29,737 nt of DNA from a virus. Lineage: Duplodnaviria > Heunggongvirae > Uroviricota > Caudoviricetes. Below, in pieces: positions 3,510 through 24,325 of the stretch. Positions within the stretch are counted from its first letter, which is position 1, and each line of letters begins with the position of its first letter. The notes under the pieces are model-generated. The model searched no databases and was not told where the DNA came from. It was given only the letters and a program-made list of their open reading frames with translations. Location of the stretch: IMG/VR virus record IMGVR_UViG_2541047877_000009. One strand, 5' to 3'. The translations under genes and the position numbers were made by a program.

Positions 3510-5784
3510 AGCCTCCGGGCGTTTTGTCCCTCCGTCAGCATTTGCCGCAGGCACCGGTAAGATGTTTACCGGTGCTTATGCATGGAACGCGCCACGCGAG
3601 GCTGTCGGGCGCGAAAGACCTCTTACACGTGATGAGATGCGTCAGGTGCAAGGTGTTTTATCCACGATTAACCGCCTGCCTTACTTTTTGCGCTCGCTGT
3701 TTACTTCACGCTATGACTACATCAGGCGCAATAAAAGCCCGGTGCACGGGTTTTATTTCCTCACATCCACTTTTCAGCGTCGTTTATGGCCGCGCATTGA
3801 GCGTGTGAATCAGCGCCATGAAATGAACACCGACGCGTCGATGCTGTTTCTGGCTGAGCGTGACCACTATGCGCGCCTGCCGGGAATGAATGACAAGGAG
3901 CTGAAAAAGTTTGCCGCCCGTATCTCATCGCAGCTTTTCATGATGTATGAGGAACTCAGCGATGCCTGGGTGGATGCGCATGGAGAAAAAGAATCGCTGT
4001 TTACGGATGAGGCGCAGGCTCACCTCTATGGTTATATTGCTGGCGCTGCACGTGCTTTCAATATTTCCCCTCTCTACTGGAAAAAATACCGTAAAGGGCA
4101 GATGACCACGAGGCAGGCATATTCTGCCATTGCCCGTCTGTTTAACGATGAGTGGTGGACTCATCAGCTTAAAGGCCAGCGTATGCGCTGGCATGAGGCG
4201 TTACTGATTGCTGTCGGGGAGGTCAATAAAGACCGTTCTCCTTATGCCAGTAAACATGCCATTCGTGATGTACGTGCACGCCGCCAGGCAAATCTGGAAT
4301 TTCTTAAATCGTGTGACCTTGAAAACAGGGAAACAGGCGAGCGCATCGACCTTATCAGTAAGGTGATGGGCAGTATTTCTAATCCTGAAATTCGCCGGAT
4401 GGAGCTGATGAACACCATTGCCGGTATTGAGCGTTACGCCGCCGCAGAGGGTGATGTGGGGATGTTTATCACGCTGACCGCGCCGTCAAAGTATCACCCG
4501 ACACGTCAGGTCAGAAAAGGCGAAAGTAAAACCGTCCAGCTAAATCACGGCTGGAACGATGAGGCATTTAATCCAAAGGATGCGCAGCGTTATCTCTGCC
4601 GTATCTGGAGCCTGATGCGCACGGCATTCAAGGATAATGATTTACAGGCCTACGGTTTGCGTGTCGTCGAGCCACACCACGACGGAACGCCGCACTGGCA
4701 TATGATGCTTTTTTGTAATCCACGCCAGCGTAACCAGATTATTGAAATCATGCGTCGCTACGCGCTCAAAGAGGATGGAGACGAAAGAGGAGCCGCGCGA
4801 AACCGTTTTCAGGCAAAACATCTTAACCGGGGCGGTGCTGCGGGGTATATCGCGAAATACATCTCAAAAAACATCGATGGCTATGCACTGGATGGTCAGC
4901 TCGATAACGATACCGGCAGGCCGCTGAAAGATACTGCTGCGGCTGTTACCGCATGGGCGTCAACGTGGCGCATTCCGCAATTTAAAACGGTTGGTCTGCC
5001 GACAATGGGGGCTTACCGTGAACTACGCAAATTGCCTCGCGGCGTCAGCATTGCTGATGAGTTTGACGAGCGCGTCGAGGCTGCACGCGCCGCTGCAGAC
5101 AGTGGTGATTTTGCGCTGTATATCAGCGCGCAGGGTGGGGCAAATGTTCCGCGCGATTGTCAGACTGTCAGGGTCGCCCGTAGCCCGTCGGATGACGTTA
5201 ACGAGTACGAGGAAGAGGTCGAGAGAGTGGTCGGCATTTACGCGCCGCATCTCGGCGCGCGTCATATTCATATCACCAGAACGACGGACTGGCGCATTGT
5301 GCCGAAAGTTCCGGTCGTTGAGCCTTTGACTTTAAAAAGCGGCATCGCCGCGCCTCGGAGTCCTGTCAATAACTGTGGAAAGCTCACCGGTGGTGATACT
5401 TCGTTACCGGCTCCCACACCTCCTGAACACGCCGCAGCAGTGCTAAATCTGGTTGATGACGGTGTTATCGAATGGAATGACCCGGAGGTCGTGAGGACGC
5501 TCAGGGGTGCATTAAAACACGGCCTGAAAACACCAAATCGTCAGCAAAGAAACGGAAGTCCGTTAAAACCACATGAAATAGCACCGTCGGCCAGACTGAC
5601 CCGGTCGGAACGATTGCAAATTACCCGTATCCGCGTTGACCTTGCTCAGAACGGTATCAGGCCGCAGCGATGGGAGCTTGAGGCGCTGGCGCGTGGCGCG
5701 ACCGTAAATTATGACGGGAAAAAATTCACGTATCCGGTCGCTGATGAGTGGCCGGGATTCTCAACAGTAATGGCGCGGACATAA
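3499..5784 (+). CDS. A: Replication initiation endonuclease gpA (rolling-circle HUH nickase). ORF track start 3457; MAVKASGRF at 3499 preferred.
   Basis: About 761-aa ORF; HUH-type motif HWHMMLF and catalytic tyrosine motif YIAKYISK; N-terminus MAVKASGRFVPPSAF as I recall for P2 A. Confidence 0.9.
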   Translation: MAVKASGRFVPPSAFAAGTGKMFTGAYAWNAPREAVGRERPLTRDEMRQVQGVLSTINRLPYFLRSLFTSRYDYIRRNKSPVHGFYFLTSTFQRRLWPRIERVNQRHEMNTDASMLFLAERDHYARLPGMNDKELKKFAARISSQLFMMYEELSDAWVDAHGEKESLFTDEAQAHLYGYIAGAARAFNISPLYWKKYRKGQMTTRQAYSAIARLFNDEWWTHQLKGQRMRWHEALLIAVGEVNKDRSPYASKHAIRDVRARRQANLEFLKSCDLENRETGERIDLISKVMGSISNPEIRRMELMNTIAGIERYAAAEGDVGMFITLTAPSKYHPTRQVRKGESKTVQLNHGWNDEAFNPKDAQRYLCRIWSLMRTAFKDNDLQAYGLRVVEPHHDGTPHWHMMLFCNPRQRNQIIEIMRRYALKEDGDERGAARNRFQAKHLNRGGAAGYIAKYISKNIDGYALDGQLDNDTGRPLKDTAAAVTAWASTWRIPQFKTVGLPTMGAYRELRKLPRGVSIADEFDERVEAARAAADSGDFALYISAQGGANVPRDCQTVRVARSPSDDVNEYEEEVERVVGIYAPHLGARHIHITRTTDWRIVPKVPVVEPLTLKSGIAAPRSPVNNCGKLTGGDTSLPAPTPPEHAAAVLNLVDDGVIEWNDPEVVRTLRGALKHGLKTPNRQQRNGSPLKPHEIAPSARLTRSERLQITRIRVDLAQNGIRPQRWELEALARGATVNYDGKKFTYPVADEWPGFSTVMART

Positions 5785-6236
5785 TGACAAAGATTCACAA
5801 AGTAAAGCTGCACGCAAAATATTTCGACCTTGTGCTGGAAGGAAAGAAACGCGCAGAGTTTCGGAAAAATGACCGTAATTATGAGCGCGGAGACACGTTG
5901 ATTTTGCATGAATGGGGGCAGGGTGTGTATACGGGGCGAAAGGTTGAAGCCCGGATAACAGATGTTACTGACCTGTCAGACTGGCTGGAAGATTATGTCT
6001 TGCTAAGTATTGAGCTGCTTAATACAGGCGCATATGAGATTGTGAACTGGAAAGAACTTAGTGAGCGTGGTCTGGTATTCAGAATTAATCATGAAATTAT
6101 GCATCAGCTCGGCCTTGCTGTTATGTATGAACCAGAGACGGGGATGTCTGGCGGGGCAATGGTTGCCACGGATGGAGCATGGAACTATTCAGATGAACAG
6201 ATTGAGCGTGCAAAGCAAAACGGGTGGCTTGGATAA
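5784..6236 (+). CDS. DUF3850/ASCH-like (PUA-fold) domain protein with an unassigned roughly 70-aa C-terminal extension
   Basis: ATG overlaps the A stop (TAATG). N-terminus MTKIHKVKLHAKYFDLVLEGKKRAEFRKNDRNYERGDTLILHEW fits the DUF3850/ASCH pattern from recall; first gene of the cargo region. Confidence 0.55.
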   Translation: MTKIHKVKLHAKYFDLVLEGKKRAEFRKNDRNYERGDTLILHEWGQGVYTGRKVEARITDVTDLSDWLEDYVLLSIELLNTGAYEIVNWKELSERGLVFRINHEIMHQLGLAVMYEPETGMSGGAMVATDGAWNYSDEQIERAKQNGWLG

Positions 6237-6765: not shown

Positions 6766-7662
6766 ATGAATAAAAGTAAAGCAATCTCAAGAATAGAGAG
6801 AGTGTTGAGAAGATTAAAGGATGGGAGTTTCACTGATAGTGATATTGATGTTCTTTTTGTTACGGCCCGTGAGTTGCCGAGTGCGCCCAAGTGTATTTTT
6901 GAAATTGGGAGTTTTGTTGCCCATAATCATCGGAGAGATCAAGGCGAGATAAAGGATATCATGCTGAGGAATCATTTGTTATTAAGTTTAAAATTTGGAC
7001 GCGATAAGCATGCTGTTAAACCAGAGTTAAATGAATACCCGAAATACTTACCTACATTAATCAGACTGCAATTAAGAATGTTCAGTGATGAGTTTTTAAA
7101 GGAGAAGTTAAACTTAAAGGGGGGGCAGGTAATTACAGCGAGGAAGAAGCTTAATAACAAGAAATCGTATATTGTTAATGATGGTGTTTGTAAGTTAACA
7201 CCAGAAATTGGTTCCAATGAAGGGCGAATGATTAATGAAGCTTTGTCGTTACTCAATTGTTCTGACGCAATTAAGTTCGACTCTTTATTTAATGAGCTGA
7301 AAATATTGCTTCGGAAGGAGATTTCAGGGGTGGACTTGATGCCGCTTGATAATAACAGGAGAGCAATAGCAGGCATCTTACTGTGTTTGTTGAATAATAT
7401 TGATTTTTCTCTGATGCCTGAAGTCAAAGCAAAAACAGTCCTTAGTCTTAATGATGCAGATAAATCTGCAAATGTTTATGGTCAATATTATATAACACAT
7501 GAAAAAGAGCCATTCACCGACGTGGCTATCATGAGCCCAGTGTTTCAGTCGGGGTATGATGTTAGTGACCTTTTTGATGAGCATGTGACAAATGAAAATA
7601 TCGTAAATGGGGATGTCGAATTTAGTTTTGATTTGGGGAAAATAGTTGTGTCGAAATCATAG
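6766..7662 (+). CDS. AT-rich hypothetical protein, 298 aa, in the P2 accessory hotspot between A and cos; candidate accessory or anti-phage gene of unknown mechanism
   Basis: Long uninterrupted ORF in sequence that is visibly AT-rich by eye compared with flanking phage genes (not computed); preceded by a 330-bp AT-rich non-coding stretch; occupies the locus where P2 carries tin/old; no Walker A, HUH or other motif found by eye. Confidence 0.75.
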   Translation: MNKSKAISRIERVLRRLKDGSFTDSDIDVLFVTARELPSAPKCIFEIGSFVAHNHRRDQGEIKDIMLRNHLLLSLKFGRDKHAVKPELNEYPKYLPTLIRLQLRMFSDEFLKEKLNLKGGQVITARKKLNNKKSYIVNDGVCKLTPEIGSNEGRMINEALSLLNCSDAIKFDSLFNELKILLRKEISGVDLMPLDNNRRAIAGILLCLLNNIDFSLMPEVKAKTVLSLNDADKSANVYGQYYITHEKEPFTDVAIMSPVFQSGYDVSDLFDEHVTNENIVNGDVEFSFDLGKIVVSKS

Positions 7663-17260: not shown

Positions 17261-17896
17261 ATGAACACTCTCGCAAATATTCAGGAACTCGCGCGCGCAC
17301 TGCGCAACATGATTCGCACCGGCGTTATCGTCGAAACCGACCTTAACGCCGGTCGCTGCCGTGTGCAGACCGGCGGCATGTGCACTGACTGGCTTCAGTG
17401 GCTGACCCATCGCGCCGGACGTTCGCGCACATGGTGGGCACCTTCCGTGGGGGAGCAGGTGCTGATTCTGGCCGTGGGCGGTGAACTTGACACGGCGTTT
17501 GTTCTGCCGGGGATTTATTCCGGCGATAACCCCGCGCCGTCTGCGTCGGCGGATGCCCTGCATATCCGTTTCCCTGACGGGGCGGTGATTGAGTATGAAC
17601 CCGAAACCAGTGCACTCACGGTAAGCGGAATTAAAACGGCCAGCGTGACGGCTTCTGATTCTGTTACTGCCACGGTGCCGGTGGTCATGGTGAAAGCATC
17701 AACCCGCGTCACCCTGGACACACCGGAGGTGGTCTGCACCAACAGGCTGATTACCGGCACGCTGGAAGTGCAGAAGGGCGGGACGATGCGCGGCAACATT
17801 GAACACACCGGCGGTGAACTCTCATCAAACGGTAAGGTACTGCATACCCATAAACACCCCGGCGACAGCGGCGGCACAACCGGGAGCCCTCTATGA
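17261..17896 (+). CDS. V: Baseplate central spike gpV
   Basis: 211-aa ORF, the length I recall for P2 V; starts the V-W-J-I-H-G operon. Confidence 0.85.
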   Translation: MNTLANIQELARALRNMIRTGVIVETDLNAGRCRVQTGGMCTDWLQWLTHRAGRSRTWWAPSVGEQVLILAVGGELDTAFVLPGIYSGDNPAPSASADALHIRFPDGAVIEYEPETSALTVSGIKTASVTASDSVTATVPVVMVKASTRVTLDTPEVVCTNRLITGTLEVQKGGTMRGNIEHTGGELSSNGKVLHTHKHPGDSGGTTGSPL

Positions 17897-19153: not shown

Positions 19154-19757
19154 TTCGCGCCTGCTGCCGACCGGCTCATCACCGCTTGAAGTTGCCGCCG
19201 CAAAAGCCTGTGCGGAAATTGAAAAAACGCCGGTCAGTATTCGTGAGCTGTGGAACCCGGACACCTGCCCGGCAAATCTGCTGCCGTGGCTGGCGTGGTC
19301 ATTTTCGGTTGACCGCTGGGATGATAAGTGGCCGGAAGCGACAAAACGCGCTGTTATCCGCGATGCGTATTTCATTCACTGCCATAAGGGCACTATAGGC
19401 GCAATCCGGCGTGTGGTGGAGCCGCTCGGCTATCTGATTGAGGTAAGGGAGTGGTGGCAGCTCAACGAGGAGCCGGGGACGTTCCGTATCGTTGTTGGCG
19501 TGCTTGAGCAGGGTATTACCGAAGAAATGTATCAGGAGCTGGAGCGCCTCGTTGCTGATGCAAAACCGGCAAGCCGCCATCTGACGGGACTGGCTATCAG
19601 TTTAAGTACAAACGGCAACATTTTTGCCGGTGCGGGATGCTATCACGGCGACGCCCTGACGGTTTATCCCTACACCCCGGAGGCCATTATTGTCGGAGGG
19701 GATTATTTCCCGGCCTCGGCCATTCATTTAATTGATAACCTGAGAGTAAACGCATGA
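19146..19757 (+). CDS. I: Baseplate protein gpI
   Basis: 203-aa ORF (longer than the about 176 aa I recall for P2 I); GGAGG SD; overlaps the J stop. Confidence 0.8.
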   Translation: MSDSRLLPTGSSPLEVAAAKACAEIEKTPVSIRELWNPDTCPANLLPWLAWSFSVDRWDDKWPEATKRAVIRDAYFIHCHKGTIGAIRRVVEPLGYLIEVREWWQLNEEPGTFRIVVGVLEQGITEEMYQELERLVADAKPASRHLTGLAISLSTNGNIFAGAGCYHGDALTVYPYTPEAIIVGGDYFPASAIHLIDNLRVNA

Positions 19758-21040
19758 CAGTGAAATACTACGCCATTCTGACTAATCAGGGCGCAGCACG
19801 GCTGGCTAACGCGACGATGCTCGGCAGTAAGCTGAATCTGACGCAAATGGCCGTTGGTGATGCGAATGGTGTCTTGCCGACACCAGACCCGGCACAGACA
19901 AAACTGATTAACCAGAAACGCATCGCGCCGCTGAATCTTCTGAGTATTGACCCGAACAACCAGAGCCAGATTATTGCGGAGCAAATCATCCCTGAGAACG
20001 AGGGCGGATTCTGGATCCGTGAGATTGGGCTTTATGATGATGAAGGCGTACTCATTGCGGTGGCGAACTGCCCGGAAACGTACAAACCGCAGTTGCAGGA
20101 AGGCAGTGGTCGTACCCAGACTATCCGCATGATTCTGGTTGTCACGAATACCGAAGCCATCACGCTGAAAATCGACCCGTCGGTGGTACTGGCGACCCGT
20201 AAATACGTGGATGATAAAGTCCTGGAATTAAAGCTGTATGTGGATGACCAGATGAGAAACCACATTGCCGCACAGGATCCTCATACCCAGTATGCACAGA
20301 AACATAATCCGACATTTACCGGAGAACCAAAAGCGCCGACGCCTGCCGCAGGAAATAACACCACGCGGATTGCGACCACTGCGTTTGTACAGGCCGCTAT
20401 TACCGCTCTGATTAACGGTGCCCCTGACACGCTGGACACACTGAAAGAAATTGCCGCAGCTATCAACAATGACCCGAAATTCAGTACCACCATTAACAAT
20501 GCGCTGTCAGGTAAGCAGCCACTGGATGAGACGCTGACTCATTTGAGTGGAAAGGATGTTGCTGGTCTTCTCGCATACCTTGGTTTGGGAGAAGGCTCTG
20601 CATTACCTGTTGGGGTGCCTGTTCCGTGGCCTTCAGCCACTCCGCCAACAGGCTGGCTGAAATGCAACGGTGCGGCTTTTTCTGCTGAAGAATACCCGGA
20701 ACTGGCAAAGGCTTACCCGACAAATAAATTGCCTGATTTACGTGGTGAGTTCATTCGTGGCTGGGATGACGGAAGAGGAATAGATACTAACCGTAGCTTG
20801 CTTTCGTCACAGGGAGATGCCATTCGAAATATAATTGGTGCATTAGTGGATGTCAGGTTTAATACCTACCCTTCTGATTCTGGCGTTTTTACAACCAGCG
20901 TCATCGGAGATGCTTCATCTGATTCAATTAAAGGTGGTTATGCAAAGCAAGTAACATTCGATGCTTCCAGAGTTGTTCCAACTGCAAACGAAAACCGACC
21001 TCGTAACATTGCCTTTAATTATATCGTGAGGGCTGCCTGA
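19754..21040 (+). CDS. H: Tail fibre protein gpH in its current orientation; C-terminal about 150 aa lie inside the invertible segment
   Basis: 428-aa ORF with N-terminus MTVKYYAILTNQGAARLANA... typical of P2-family tail fibres; the crossover site at 20568..20593 falls at codons about 272-280. Confidence 0.85.
   Translation: MTVKYYAILTNQGAARLANATMLGSKLNLTQMAVGDANGVLPTPDPAQTKLINQKRIAPLNLLSIDPNNQSQIIAEQIIPENEGGFWIREIGLYDDEGVLIAVANCPETYKPQLQEGSGRTQTIRMILVVTNTEAITLKIDPSVVLATRKYVDDKVLELKLYVDDQMRNHIAAQDPHTQYAQKHNPTFTGEPKAPTPAAGNNTTRIATTAFVQAAITALINGAPDTLDTLKEIAAAINNDPKFSTTINNALSGKQPLDETLTHLSGKDVAGLLAYLGLGEGSALPVGVPVPWPSATPPTGWLKCNGAAFSAEEYPELAKAYPTNKLPDLRGEFIRGWDDGRGIDTNRSLLSSQGDAIRNIIGALVDVRFNTYPSDSGVFTTSVIGDASSDSIKGGYAKQVTFDASRVVPTANENRPRNIAFNYIVRAA
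20568..20593. repeat. Left 26-bp recombination crossover site (hix/gix-like) inside H
   Basis: TTCTCGCATACC-TT-GGTTTGGGAGAA: imperfect palindrome with half-sites TTCTCnnAwACC around a 2-bp core, the DNA-invertase crossover-site architecture; encodes LLAYLGLGE in the H frame. Confidence 0.7.
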
Positions 21041-21642
21041 TGAATAAAGCCGTATTAAATAACGAACTCATTGCCATAAAAGCGGGAGACATTACCATTT
21101 ATAATTATGATGGTGAAACGCGGGAATATATTTCCACATCAACTGAATATCTTGCGGTTGGCGTCGGTATCCCGGCATGTTCTTGTTTAGATGCACCAGT
21201 TACACATAAAGCTGGTTATGCAATCTGCCGTTCTGCAGATTTTAACTCATGGGAATATGTGCCAGACCATCGCGGTGAAATCATCTATAGCACCGAAACA
21301 GGAGAATCGAAAGAAATCACAGCTCCGGGTGATTACCCTGAAAATACAACCACTATCGCCCCGTTAACGCCATATGATAAATGGGATGGTGAGAAATGGG
21401 TGACGGATACTGAGGCACAGCATAGTGCCGCAGTAGACGCAGCAGAAGCACAGCGCCAGTCACTGATTGATGCAGCAATGGCTTCCATTAGTCTGATTCA
21501 GCTGAAATTACAGGCCGGACGGAAACTGACGCAGGCAGAAACAACCCGACTTAACGCCGTGCTGGATTACATTGACGCGGTGACGGCAACAGATACCAGC
21601 ACAGCGCCGGACGTCATCTGGCCTGAACTGCCGGAGGCGTAG
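21040..21642 (+). CDS. G: Tail fibre assembly chaperone (Tfa, gpG-like), variant 1
   Basis: 200-aa ORF directly after H; C-terminal region AVLDYIDAVTATDTSTAPDVIWPELP mirrors that of the opposing Tfa. Confidence 0.8.
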   Translation: MNKAVLNNELIAIKAGDITIYNYDGETREYISTSTEYLAVGVGIPACSCLDAPVTHKAGYAICRSADFNSWEYVPDHRGEIIYSTETGESKEITAPGDYPENTTTIAPLTPYDKWDGEKWVTDTEAQHSAAVDAAEAQRQSLIDAAMASISLIQLKLQAGRKLTQAETTRLNAVLDYIDAVTATDTSTAPDVIWPELPEA

Positions 21643-22054
21643 GCCATTCAATATCTGGCGCACCGGAAGTATCGACCAGTTCCAGTGCGTCCAGATAATC
21701 CAGCCACAAATTATATTGCGCCAGTTCCCCACCTTTCAGGCGACCAATCGCCGCTTTACCAGGCCATTGCTTACTGTTTATGTATTCGTTGACCTGATTA
21801 ATCAATTGCTGCTTTTCCAGTTCGGCTGCGGCAATTTGTTCCTCATGAGTTGGCGGTGGAATATCAATCCATGCAGGCATTCCGTCGATGACACCTCTGT
21901 ATTTTCCTTCTGGTGCTTCCTTCATAAATTCGGCGGCAACAGTGTCGTCAATTTCGATTCCATCACCGGGCCATTCGCCGGATTCCTGATAAGCGATTTT
22001 AAGCTCCACAGGGAAAAACGCATTTTTATCGGCACTGAAAATATATTTCTGCAT
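21614..22054 (-). CDS. Tail fibre assembly chaperone, variant 2 (expressed after inversion)
   Basis: 146-aa minus-strand ORF with C-terminus LWLDYLDALELVDTSGAPDIEWPTPP paralogous to the plus-strand Tfa; its 3' end overlaps G convergently. Confidence 0.75.
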   Translation of the reverse strand: MQKYIFSADKNAFFPVELKIAYQESGEWPGDGIEIDDTVAAEFMKEAPEGKYRGVIDGMPAWIDIPPPTHEEQIAAAELEKQQLINQVNEYINSKQWPGKAAIGRLKGGELAQYNLWLDYLDALELVDTSGAPDIEWPTPPAVQAR

Positions 22055-22056
22055 TT

Positions 22057-22414
22057 CTACCGTCCTATCGAAATATAACTGAATCTGTATTGCTGTGAGA
22101 TATCACTGGTTGCCACACGCCACGCTGAATTACTGATATGTTCAAAATTTACAGACAAAACCTGCGGGGCAGGATTCGACGGGTCTGACTGAACGGCATC
22201 AGACATAACACTGACTGAAACCATCGGCTGATTAGGGAATGGTATAGGGAAGTGTCCACTGATAAAGCGGGTCGTGTTTCCTGAAAAAGTGCCAAACTGA
22301 ACAATATATCCACCTGGTAGCCTGAACCATCCCGAACCAGAAGCGAATGCTCCCATATCCGGTATCTGATTATCTCCTGTGCCCACATCCCTTTTCGCCG
22401 CTTCTCCTAAACCA
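22057..22414 (-). CDS. Promoterless alternative tail-fibre C-terminal segment (Hc'), fused in frame to the H N-terminus after inversion
   Basis: Minus-strand reading frame is open from the right crossover site (encoding FINVGLGE, matching LLAYLGLGE at the left site) to the stop at 22057; no independent start needed; Gly/Ser-rich tip-like sequence. Confidence 0.7.
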
Positions 22415-22427
22415 ACGTTTATGAAAA
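22402..22427. repeat. Right 26-bp recombination crossover site, inverted relative to the left site
   Basis: TTCTCCTAAACC-AA-CGTTTATGAAAA; its reverse complement ...GTTGGTTTAGGAGAA aligns with ...CTTGGTTTGGGAGAA of the left site in the same reading frame; core TT/AA is in inverted orientation. Confidence 0.7.
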
Positions 22428-22481
22428 TGCAGAAATAACGAGCAAATGGCATCATTCCTGCTTTTGTCAGGGAGAGCTACC

Positions 22482-23075
22482 ATGCTTATTGGCTATGTAC
22501 GCGTGTCAACAAATGACCAGAACACCGATTTGCAACGTAATGCACTGAACTGCGCGGGATGTGAGCGGATTTTTGAGGATAAAATCAGCGGCACGAAGTC
22601 CGACAGGCCGGGACTGAAAAAACTGCTCAGAACATTATCAGCAGGTGACACTCTGGTAGTCTGGAAGCTGGACAGGCTGGGGCATAGTATGCGGCATCTG
22701 GTCATTCTGGTTGAGGAACTGCGCGAACGCGGTGTTAATTTTCGCAGCCTGACGGATGCCATTGATACCAGCACGCCGATGGGGCGTTTTTTCTTTCATG
22801 TGATGGGGGCCCTGGCTGAAATGGAACGAGAACTCATTGTCGAGCGGACTCGGGCCGGGCTGGAAGCGGCCAGAGCCAAAGGTCGTATTGGTGGCAGACG
22901 TCCTAAACTCACCACGAGTGAGTGGGAGCAGGCCGGGCGTTTGCTGGCTGCAGGGGAGTCACGTCAACGCGTGGCACTGATTTTTGATATTGGTCTGTCC
23001 ACGCTCTATAAAAAATTTCCCTCATCAGCGACAAAGAATAAATTGTGTCATCCCTTAGCCAACCGGGACAAATAG
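22482..23075 (+). CDS. Serine DNA invertase (Hin/Gin/Pin/Cin family, resolvase-invertase fold). ORF track start 22446; MLIGYVRVST at 22482 preferred (GGAGAG SD).
   Basis: N-terminal catalytic motif MLIGYVRVSTNDQ with the conserved serine, then resolvase-domain motifs and a C-terminal HTH (GRRPKLT...); about 197 aa; directly beside a crossover site. Confidence 0.9.
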   Translation: MLIGYVRVSTNDQNTDLQRNALNCAGCERIFEDKISGTKSDRPGLKKLLRTLSAGDTLVVWKLDRLGHSMRHLVILVEELRERGVNFRSLTDAIDTSTPMGRFFFHVMGALAEMERELIVERTRAGLEAARAKGRIGGRRPKLTTSEWEQAGRLLAAGESRQRVALIFDIGLSTLYKKFPSSATKNKLCHPLANRDK

Positions 23076-23134
23076 CCTGACATCTCCGGCACAACTGAAA
23101 ATATCACTCACCCATTAACCACGGAGTTAAACGG

Positions 23135-24325
23135 ATGAGTGACTATCATCACGGCGTGCAGGTGCTGGAGATTAACGACGGCACCCGCGTCATTTCCACC
23201 GTATCAACTGCCATTGTCGGCATGGTCTGCACGGCCAGCGATGCGGATGCGGAAACCTTCCCCCTCAATAAACCGGTGCTGATTACCAATGTGCAGAGTG
23301 CAATTGCAAAGGCCGGTAAAAAAGGCACGCTGGCGGCGTCGTTACAGGCCATCGCTGACCAGTCAAAACCGGTCACCGTTGTCGTACGTGTGGAAGACGG
23401 CACCGGCGACGACGAAGAAACGAAACTCGCGCAGACCGTTTCCAATATCATCGGCACCACCGACGAAAACGGTCAGTACACCGGACTGAAAGCCCTGCTG
23501 GCGGCGGAGTCGGTAACCGGTGTTAAACCGCGTATTCTCGGCGTGCCGGGACTGGACACCAAAGAGGTGGCTGTTGCACTGGCATCAGTCTGTCAGAAGC
23601 TGCGCGCTTTCGGGTATATCAGCGCATGGGGCTGTAAAACCATTTCCGAGGTGAAAGCCTACCGCCAGAATTTCAGCCAGCGTGAGCTGATGGTCATCTG
23701 GCCGGATTTCCTCGCATGGGATACGGTCACGAGTACCACCGCCACCGCGTATGCCACCGCCCGTGCGCTGGGACTGCGTGCCAAAATCGACCAGGAGCAG
23801 GGCTGGCATAAAACGCTGTCCAACGTTGGGGTGAACGGTGTTACCGGCATCAGCGCCTCTGTATTCTGGGATTTGCAGGAGTCCGGCACCGATGCTGACC
23901 TGCTTAACGAGTCAGGCGTCACAACGCTGATTCGCCGTGACGGTTTCCGCTTCTGGGGTAACCGTACCTGCTCTGATGACCCGCTGTTCCTCTTTGAAAA
24001 CTACACCCGCACCGCGCAGGTGCTGGCCGACACGATGGCTGAGGCGCACATGTGGGCGGTGGACAAGCCCATCACCGCAACGCTGATTCGCGACATCGTT
24101 GACGGCATCAATGCCAAATTCCGTGAGCTGAAAACAAACGGCTATATCGTGGATGCGACCTGCTGGTTCAGCGAAGAATCCAACGATGCGGAAACCCTCA
24201 AGGCCGGAAAACTGTATATCGACTACGACTATACCCCGGTGCCTCCTCTCGAAAACCTGACCCTGCGCCAGCGTATTACCGATAAATACCTGGCAAATCT
24301 GGTCACCTCGGTTAACAGCAATTAA
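23135..24325 (+). CDS. FI: Contractile tail sheath protein FI
   Basis: 396-aa ORF, the length I recall for P2 FI; GGAG SD; followed by the tail tube gene. Confidence 0.9.
   Translation: MSDYHHGVQVLEINDGTRVISTVSTAIVGMVCTASDADAETFPLNKPVLITNVQSAIAKAGKKGTLAASLQAIADQSKPVTVVVRVEDGTGDDEETKLAQTVSNIIGTTDENGQYTGLKALLAAESVTGVKPRILGVPGLDTKEVAVALASVCQKLRAFGYISAWGCKTISEVKAYRQNFSQRELMVIWPDFLAWDTVTSTTATAYATARALGLRAKIDQEQGWHKTLSNVGVNGVTGISASVFWDLQESGTDADLLNESGVTTLIRRDGFRFWGNRTCSDDPLFLFENYTRTAQVLADTMAEAHMWAVDKPITATLIRDIVDGINAKFRELKTNGYIVDATCWFSEESNDAETLKAGKLYIDYDYTPVPPLENLTLRQRITDKYLANLVTSVNSN

Follow-up and report, generated by a model that had tools for sequence, protein, structure and literature searches.

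The locus considered here raises two questions: does the tail-fibre region of a P2-like Escherichia coli prophage hold a working invertible switch and, if so, which enzyme turns it? The prophage is contained in the IMG/VR virus record IMGVR_UViG_2541047877_000009, a sequence of 29,737 nucleotides (nt) assigned to the Caudoviricetes; this whole stretch is called the window in the following. An earlier description, based on the letters of the window and here named the sequence-only reading, had proposed that the tail-fibre gene H exchanges its C-terminus through inversion of a segment lying between two crossover sites, next to a serine invertase. The segment does invert, and the switch is live in nature. 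That the locus is a two-state invertible tail-fibre cassette of the Din family (Gin/Cin/Pin/Hin/Fin-type) is regarded as highly probable. The identity of the enzyme is less straightforward, since the resident invertase carries an unusual residue in its active site.

Crossover sites

The two sites are the following:

20568-20593, core 20580-20581, inside H: left 26-bp crossover site, TTCTCGCATACC-TT-GGTTTGGGAGAA.
22402-22427, core 22414-22415: right 26-bp crossover site, TTCTCCTAAACC-AA-CGTTTATGAAAA.

Both are of the hix/gix/pix type; they are inverted relative to each other and feature matching cores, AA being the reverse complement of TT; together, they form the longest inverted repeat of the region 19700-23200. 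Each of them is an imperfect palindrome, with half-site matches of 10/12 and 9/12. The two 26-bp inverted palindromes proposed by the sequence-only reading were found again at exactly the same coordinates, and the left site is equal to the reverse-complemented right one at 20 of 26 positions in the recomputed alignment. A degenerate search of the 29.7 kb with TTCTCNNAWACCNNGGTWTNNGAGAA, allowing three mismatches at most, returned just these two sites, where 0.01 were expected; two or more matches were present in none of 100 shuffled sequences. When 26-mers are scored against a 20-position consensus, the two sites reach 19 and 18, the next best one in the window 13. A third crossover site was accordingly rejected, as no other match is present in the window: the locus is therefore a simple two-site switch, and not a multi-site shufflon. 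The inner half of the left site, TTGGTTTGGGAGAAGG, coincides with the published inversion repeat of the e14 P segment (PMC12529663).

Both sites are translated in the same register, as had been claimed: on the plus strand, the codons of the left site (ctt ctc gca tac ctt ggt ttg gga gaa) encode LLAYLGLGE, while those of the right site, read on the minus strand (ttc ata aac gtt ggt tta gga gaa), encode FINVGLGE. The core TT corresponds, in both, to codon positions 2-3 directly 5' of GGT-TTR-GGA-GAA.

Organization of the invertible segment

The segment and the tail-fibre genes are listed below, in the orientation of the window:

19754-20581, plus strand: constant part of H, codons 1-276, with the Phage_tail_fib N-terminal domain (Pfam) at residues 1-150.
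20582-22413: the 1832 bp delimited by the two cores, which make up the invertible segment; the loci L002, L003, L005 and L007 (E. coli E-93) carry it in the opposite orientation, together with an exact hybrid site.
20582-21040, plus strand: variable C-terminus 1 of H, residues 277-428, with Pfam Collar at residues 287-334.
21040-21642, plus strand: tail-fibre assembly (Tfa) gene, 200 amino acids, TfaE-like, Pfam Caudo_TAP, 93% identity to e14 TfaE.
21614-22054, minus strand: second tail-fibre assembly gene, 146 amino acids, TfaP-like, Pfam Caudo_TAP, 56% identity to e14 TfaP.
22057-22413, minus strand: variable C-terminus 2, 118 codons and a stop, Pfam Gp53-like_C.

In this orientation H (19754-21040, 428 amino acids) is composed of a P2-type tail-fibre N-terminal domain and of the expressed, Collar-type C-terminus 1, the latter showing 61% identity to the C-terminus of e14 StfE. 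Its stop codon is overlapped by the ATG of the 200-residue chaperone (TGATG). On the other strand, C-terminus 2 is promoterless and lacks an N-terminus, and the 146-residue Tfa gene is silent. In PHROG, each variable part corresponds to the C-terminal end of tail-fibre families, those matched by C-terminus 1 being tail collar fibre families; the two fibre tips belong to unrelated domain families, Collar versus Gp53-like_C. No NCBIfam family reached the cut-off for H or for the invertase, and a scan for promoters and terminators between 20400 and 23200 gave nothing above shuffled sequences.

When the inversion is simulated from core to core, residues 1-276 of H are joined in frame to the 118-residue tip, generating an open 394-residue protein, H', which has residues 1-276 plus GLGE in common with H. 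The 146-residue chaperone gene then starts 2 nt past the H' stop; in the inverted locus L007 it is annotated directly after H', on the same strand. The in-frame fusion to a different C-terminus, for which the sequence-only reading had estimated a constant part of roughly 277 residues, and the turning of the second Tfa gene into an expressible orientation are both borne out. The locus thus consists of a constant N-terminal fibre part and of alternative C-termini, each with its own Tfa, as in the S/U - S'/U' arrangement of Mu. Three orphan minus-strand open reading frames (ORFs) had also been said to find their explanation in the switch: this holds for two of them, which are real minus-strand genes, but not for the third. 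The ORF 22057-22455, on the minus strand, represents an N-terminally truncated cassette, whose first 14 codons are part of no product. For annotation purposes, the gp53-like fragment and the second Tfa gene should be described as the silent half of a switch, rather than as orphan genes, and the tail-fibre coding sequence of the prophage has two legitimate forms.

The two Tfa genes converge, and their 3' ends overlap over 29 bp (21614-21642). A short inverted repeat is present in the middle of the segment, with one arm in each of the two Tfa genes (21561-21578 / 21687-21704); it is due to a C-terminal motif shared by the Tfa proteins (LDYIDA / LDYLDA, then APD-WP).

Occurrence of both orientations

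The sequence-only reading had indicated the exclusive presence of one orientation, along with a disrupted invertase, as the mark of a fixed remnant. Both orientations are found, in otherwise identical prophages as well as in complete E. coli genomes. The window's invertase protein is encoded, without any change, on 15 public contigs: 10 seem to be in the window's orientation and 5 inverted, a count partly derived from places listed as similar. Three loci (L001, L004, L006) are 100% identical to the window and in the same orientation. In three others (L002, L003, L005), coming from three different samples, the segment runs the opposite way with respect to the invertase side, and the sequence outside the sites is free of mismatches. 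The right site of the inverted copies is exactly the predicted hybrid, TTCTCCCAAACC-AA-CGTTTATGAAAA (hybrid form TTCTCCCAAACCAACGTTTATGAAAA), which maps the exchange to 22409-22415, an interval containing the core.

Complete genomes were searched for the junctions. The left junction of the inverted form (400-bp query) is contiguous in 40 of 5,426 complete E. coli genomes, with up to 99.8% identity; the junction found in the window is contiguous in 394 of them. E. coli E-93 (L007) features the full inverted layout, with the 394-residue fusion annotated as a single tail-protein coding sequence. E. coli BS74R-D has the layout of the window: its invertase and chaperone proteins are identical to those of E-93, and the orientation is opposite.

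Some draft contigs end within the segment. Three of them, L003 (1-122), L005 (1-114) and L006 (1-110), the stated parts corresponding to window positions 20577-20698 or 22305-22414, start on the invertase side and stop 109-117 bp inside the segment, in the inverted orientation for L003 and L005, in that of the window for L006. L005 and L006 have similarly numbered assembly accessions, and both reach exactly 109 bp into the segment. These endings look like assembly-graph breaks, caused by mixed orientations in the sequenced cultures; the switch would explain, in this way, the breaks of draft assemblies at the locus.

The invertase and the candidate enhancer

The gene beside the segment, and the codon which distinguishes it, are:

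22482-23075, plus strand: Gin/Pin-family serine DNA invertase, 197 amino acids, Pfam Resolvase (6.8e-51) and HTH_7 (9e-13).
22683-22685, plus strand: His68 codon CAT, at the position of Gin Arg68 and of gamma-delta/Tn3 resolvase Arg71.

The gene begins 54 bp beyond the right site, and a GGGAGAG stretch located 5' of the start (MLIGYVRVS) is read as its ribosome-binding site. The protein matches Mu Gin (PDB 3uj3) over residues 1-182, with E = 1.9e-94; identity is 87% to PinE and 80% to Mu Gin. The exact sequence corresponds to WP_021549703.1 of E. coli. The catalytic Ser9 is kept, along with Arg7, Asp64 and Arg65 (Gin numbering), but the full set of catalytic residues (S10, R8, D67, R68 and R71 in gamma-delta/Tn3) is not, because of the histidine at position 68. 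The sequence-only reading, which had placed a Hin/Gin-family invertase with its catalytic serine just outside the segment, was therefore correct as to family, place and Ser9; the enzyme is not, in contrast, fully canonical.

A sequencing error was rejected as the origin of His68: the exact protein comes from at least six independent samples and has a RefSeq accession of its own. The only other homologue found with His68, P0058, is a "DNA-invertase" from Salmonella enterica. Just behind the motif its sequence is aberrant (LGHSMRFPNAALVEE), probably as a result of gene damage or of faulty assembly, and it was not accepted as support for a functional His68.

Within the 5' coding part of the invertase gene, the following element was selected by position and pattern:

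22503-22567: candidate Fis-dependent recombinational enhancer.

The candidate is 65 bp long, lies about 95 bp from the centre of the right site, and is found at the homologous position in pinE and gin. It contains the G-N13-C elements GTGTCAACAAATGAC and then GCGCGGGATGTGAGC, with ATTTG and TAATG tracts between them. The enhancer of hin, likewise, is 65 bp long and about 100 bp away from hix, with Fis sites at both ends and ATTTA and TAATG between them (PMC3798978). Another putative G-N13-C pair, at 22582 and 22632 (47-50 bp apart), was dropped in favour of this candidate, which is positionally homologous to the hin and gin region.

Two residues of the invertase, His106 and Met114, are wild type. 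Gin becomes Fis-independent through the change M114V (PMC3575834), and the activated Hin mutant H107Y is its counterpart: the enzyme, retaining both wild-type residues, should need the Fis/enhancer system. Inversion would thus be expected, from these sequence features, to depend on Fis and on the enhancer.

Which enzyme flips the segment

Some observations weigh against the reading of the locus as a Din-family switch. The first concerns His68. The arginine which it replaces is kept by 119 of the 120 representatives of homologue clusters, by each of the 12 other proteins of the 90% cluster that carry the motif, and by the close relative from E-93, where codon 68 is CGT. In the Tn3 resolvase, R71A and R71K mutants show no detectable resolution in vivo and cleave about 1000-fold more slowly, yet are "not inert" (PMC2794168); the resident His68 enzyme may, by this comparison, contribute little. 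Furthermore, no sigma-70-like promoter was found between the right site and the invertase start. As to the enhancer, which is assigned by positional homology alone, its second Fis-like element is G/C-rich in the centre, and the spacing is 49 bp.

Both orientations are found among His68 copies which differ by no single-nucleotide polymorphism (SNP), indicating that at least one inversion took place after the mutation arose. Which enzyme was responsible we infer from the active site and from the behavior of related invertases. The resident invertase is probably strongly attenuated, and inversion in this lineage may occur largely in trans, by related invertases of other prophages.

In the extreme form of this explanation, to which we assign about an even chance, the switch is real, its own invertase is dead through R68H, and the flipping is left entirely to Pin-family invertases which other resident prophages supply in trans, so that the prophage depends on a cross-prophage network. 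The substituted position is that of Tn3/gamma-delta R71, essential in vivo, and something must flip the segment, as both orientations occur among zero-SNP H68 copies. Trans action is well documented (PMC12529663): the e14 P segment is turned by PinQ, PinR and PinE alike, the Salmonella H segment by Fin of Fels-2, and the Mu G segment by PinE. The sequence of the e14 repeat is present within the left site. Homologous loci are frequently found more than once in a genome, with matches in 2993 of 5426 complete E. coli genomes and a median of 2 places in each. A completely dead enzyme is less easily reconciled with the "not inert" behavior of the Tn3 R71 mutants, among which histidine was not one of the substitutions tried (PMC2794168), and with the state of the H68 gene, an otherwise intact, full-length ORF in every recovered copy.

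That the His68 invertase is itself active, as a natural Din-family variant having a histidine for the third active-site arginine, appears rather unlikely. If true, it would be a natural catalytic variant, possibly slowed or pH-sensitive, flipping fast enough to produce both orientations among zero-SNP copies, and would be of interest for the study and engineering of serine recombinases. The R68H allele would represent either a host-range switch run by the invertase of another prophage or a functional variant in which histidine has taken the place of a conserved catalytic arginine, and is the only point of the locus worth a bench experiment.

Proposed mechanism and remaining alternatives

Whichever enzyme is involved, inversion of the cassette would follow the known Din-family scheme. 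A dimer of the serine invertase would bind to each 26-bp site, and the sites would be brought into synapsis, presumably together with an enhancer, occupied by Fis, within the 5' part of the gene for the invertase. Cleavage of all four strands at the 2-bp core (TT/AA) would be followed by a 180-degree rotation of one subunit pair and by rejoining of the ends, leaving the 1832 bp flipped. In the window's orientation, the late V-operon is predicted to yield H, made of the 276-residue constant part and of the 152-residue Collar-type tip, with the TfaE-like chaperone. In the inverted one, the same constant part would carry the 118-residue gp53-like tip, and the TfaP-like chaperone would be produced from the gene located 2 nt downstream. 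A population of lysogens would, in this way, give rise to virions with two receptor specificities, and a change of host range between the two fibre forms would be expected.

A different role for the switch may be envisaged from e14, where the inverted P segment yields the StfE2 fusion, which blocks T2 adsorption (PMC12529663). By analogy, the main benefit could be for the lysogen, one fibre form blocking adsorption of competing phages. The cassette is e14-like, with 93% identity for TfaE and 61% for the StfE C-terminus, though the latter value is a low one. Unlike in e14, moreover, the late operon to which the fibre gene belongs is of the P2 type and complete, no tail or baseplate gene being missing, which makes a role in the virion the simpler reading. 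Late genes are not expected to be on in an uninduced P2 lysogen, being under Ogr control. On the whole, a main benefit to the lysogen is judged improbable.

A fixed remnant, in which a once-invertible cassette is now locked and its minus-strand part is decaying, was rejected as very improbable. It would fit the replacement of the catalytic Arg68 by histidine, and the window, by itself, displays one orientation only; yet independent samples contain prophages of identical sequence, carrying the same H68 allele, in the one orientation and in the other. The two cassettes, moreover, are intact as ORFs, their domain matches being full-length, and both sites are intact.

The least credible explanation, by which the differences in orientation would come from general homologous recombination between inverted homologies, or from assembler errors, could appeal to the short inverted Tfa homology (21561-21578 / 21687-21704) and to the draft contigs ending inside the segment, but the breakpoints coincide with the 26-bp sites instead of the Tfa homology, and the hybrid site of the inverted loci is exactly that produced by an exchange within 22409-22415. 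Finished circular chromosomes, in which the fusion genes are complete and annotated, display the inverted configuration as well, and an imperfect repeat of 26 bp does not have the length needed for efficient exchange by RecA.

Relation to known invertible systems

As a two-state Din-family switch, the cassette may be compared with the systems already described. By sequence, it is closest to the e14 P segment, which is associated with PinE in E. coli K-12. The layout is shared: constant part, site, C-terminus 1, Tfa, convergent Tfa', C-terminus 2, site and invertase follow one another in both, and the segments are of similar size (1832 bp here, 1797 bp in e14). The two differ in that e14 is a defective lambdoid remnant, while the present locus is part of a complete P2-type prophage. 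In addition, the gp53-like second tip has no detectable similarity to StfP, and the invertase is 13 residues longer than PinE, runs into the P2 pF promoter region and carries His68.

The Mu G segment with Gin, and the P1 C segment with Cin, correspond in logic and in the proposed mechanism: a constant Sc is combined with Sv or Sv' and with the chaperones U or U', the gix sites are 26 bp long, the invertase is located just outside the segment, and the enhancer is in the 5' end of its gene, where the candidate enhancer of the present locus also lies. The Mu segment is larger (about 3 kb), and its variable parts are much longer. The sequence-only reading had suggested aligning the C-termini and Tfa proteins to S/S' and U/U' of Mu; the comparison indicates a cassette which is e14/Pin-like, not Mu-like. 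The fibre and chaperone cassettes of Mu are essentially unrelated, the only match being that of the 146-residue Tfa to U' (30% identity over 73 residues). Mu cassettes were rejected as the source of the segment, given that essentially no similarity to S, S' or U is found.

With Hin and hix of Salmonella the locus has in common the enzyme family, the 26-bp site with a 2-bp core, and the place of the Fis enhancer (a candidate one here) within the invertase gene, about 100 bp from a site. Hin, on the other hand, flips a promoter rather than coding cassettes, and its locus is chromosomal, not phage-borne.

Invertible tail-fibre loci have already been published for P2-like prophages. In enteropathogenic E. 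coli (EPEC) E2348/69, such prophages feature invertible loci, including a simple two-variant one, whose coexisting orientations were seen by sequencing and polymerase chain reaction (PMC4272514, Goldberg et al. 2014). In the Salmonella prophage Fels-2, a tail-fibre inversion adjoins fin (PMC7953296). Both, compared by their descriptions, correspond to a P2-like prophage with a Hin/Pin-homologous invertase beside a segment which switches tail-fibre C-termini; among the EPEC loci, however, there is a shufflon with three sites, while two sites are present here. Many phage records and E. coli genomes contain annotated loci of nearly the same arrangement, which is common in E. coli P2-like prophages. 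Because of these published loci the cassette is a standard, already known kind of switch, and adds nothing new to the Gin/Cin/Pin/Hin model.

The P2 backbone and the module junction

The gene order of the prophage is that of P2 (int, A, Q to S, V W J I H G, FI FII E T U D), as read from the Pfam families of the genes called in L001; matches in the backbone include integrase, GPA and GPD. In P2 the interval between G and FI holds a terminator, fun(Z) on the opposite strand, and pF. The proposal that the cassette stands in place of Z/fun is therefore confirmed. The DNA from pF to FI is nearly identical to that of P2, and includes the following element:

23043-23066, plus strand: counterpart of the P2 pF activator-binding site, by alignment to P2 17509-17667 (annotated site 17555-17583).

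This counterpart sits inside the last codons of the invertase, and marks the right-hand junction of the module with the P2 backbone. Homology to P2 resumes within the last 11 or so invertase codons (23043-23075) and goes on to 23135, the stop codon being located in P2-derived sequence. The additional 13 residues relative to PinE are explained by this extension of the 3' end into P2-derived DNA.

The prophage is a mosaic: the constant part of H (19754-20581) shows only 42% protein identity to the N-terminal region of P2 H, in contrast to the nearly identical DNA of the pF-FI region (23056-23150).

Two further genes are located away from the cassette. Between gene A and the capsid genes, at what we take to be the tin/old accessory position of P2, an ORF of 298 amino acids (6766-7662, plus strand) matches PHROG 29586, a family of unknown function, over its full length (1e-211); no Pfam, NCBIfam or PADLOC match was obtained for it. 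The end of gene A is overlapped by 37 nt by the gene (5748-6236, plus strand) of a 162-residue protein with ASCH/DUF3850 and DUF7415 domains, and the related PHROG families are labelled "RNA-binding protein".

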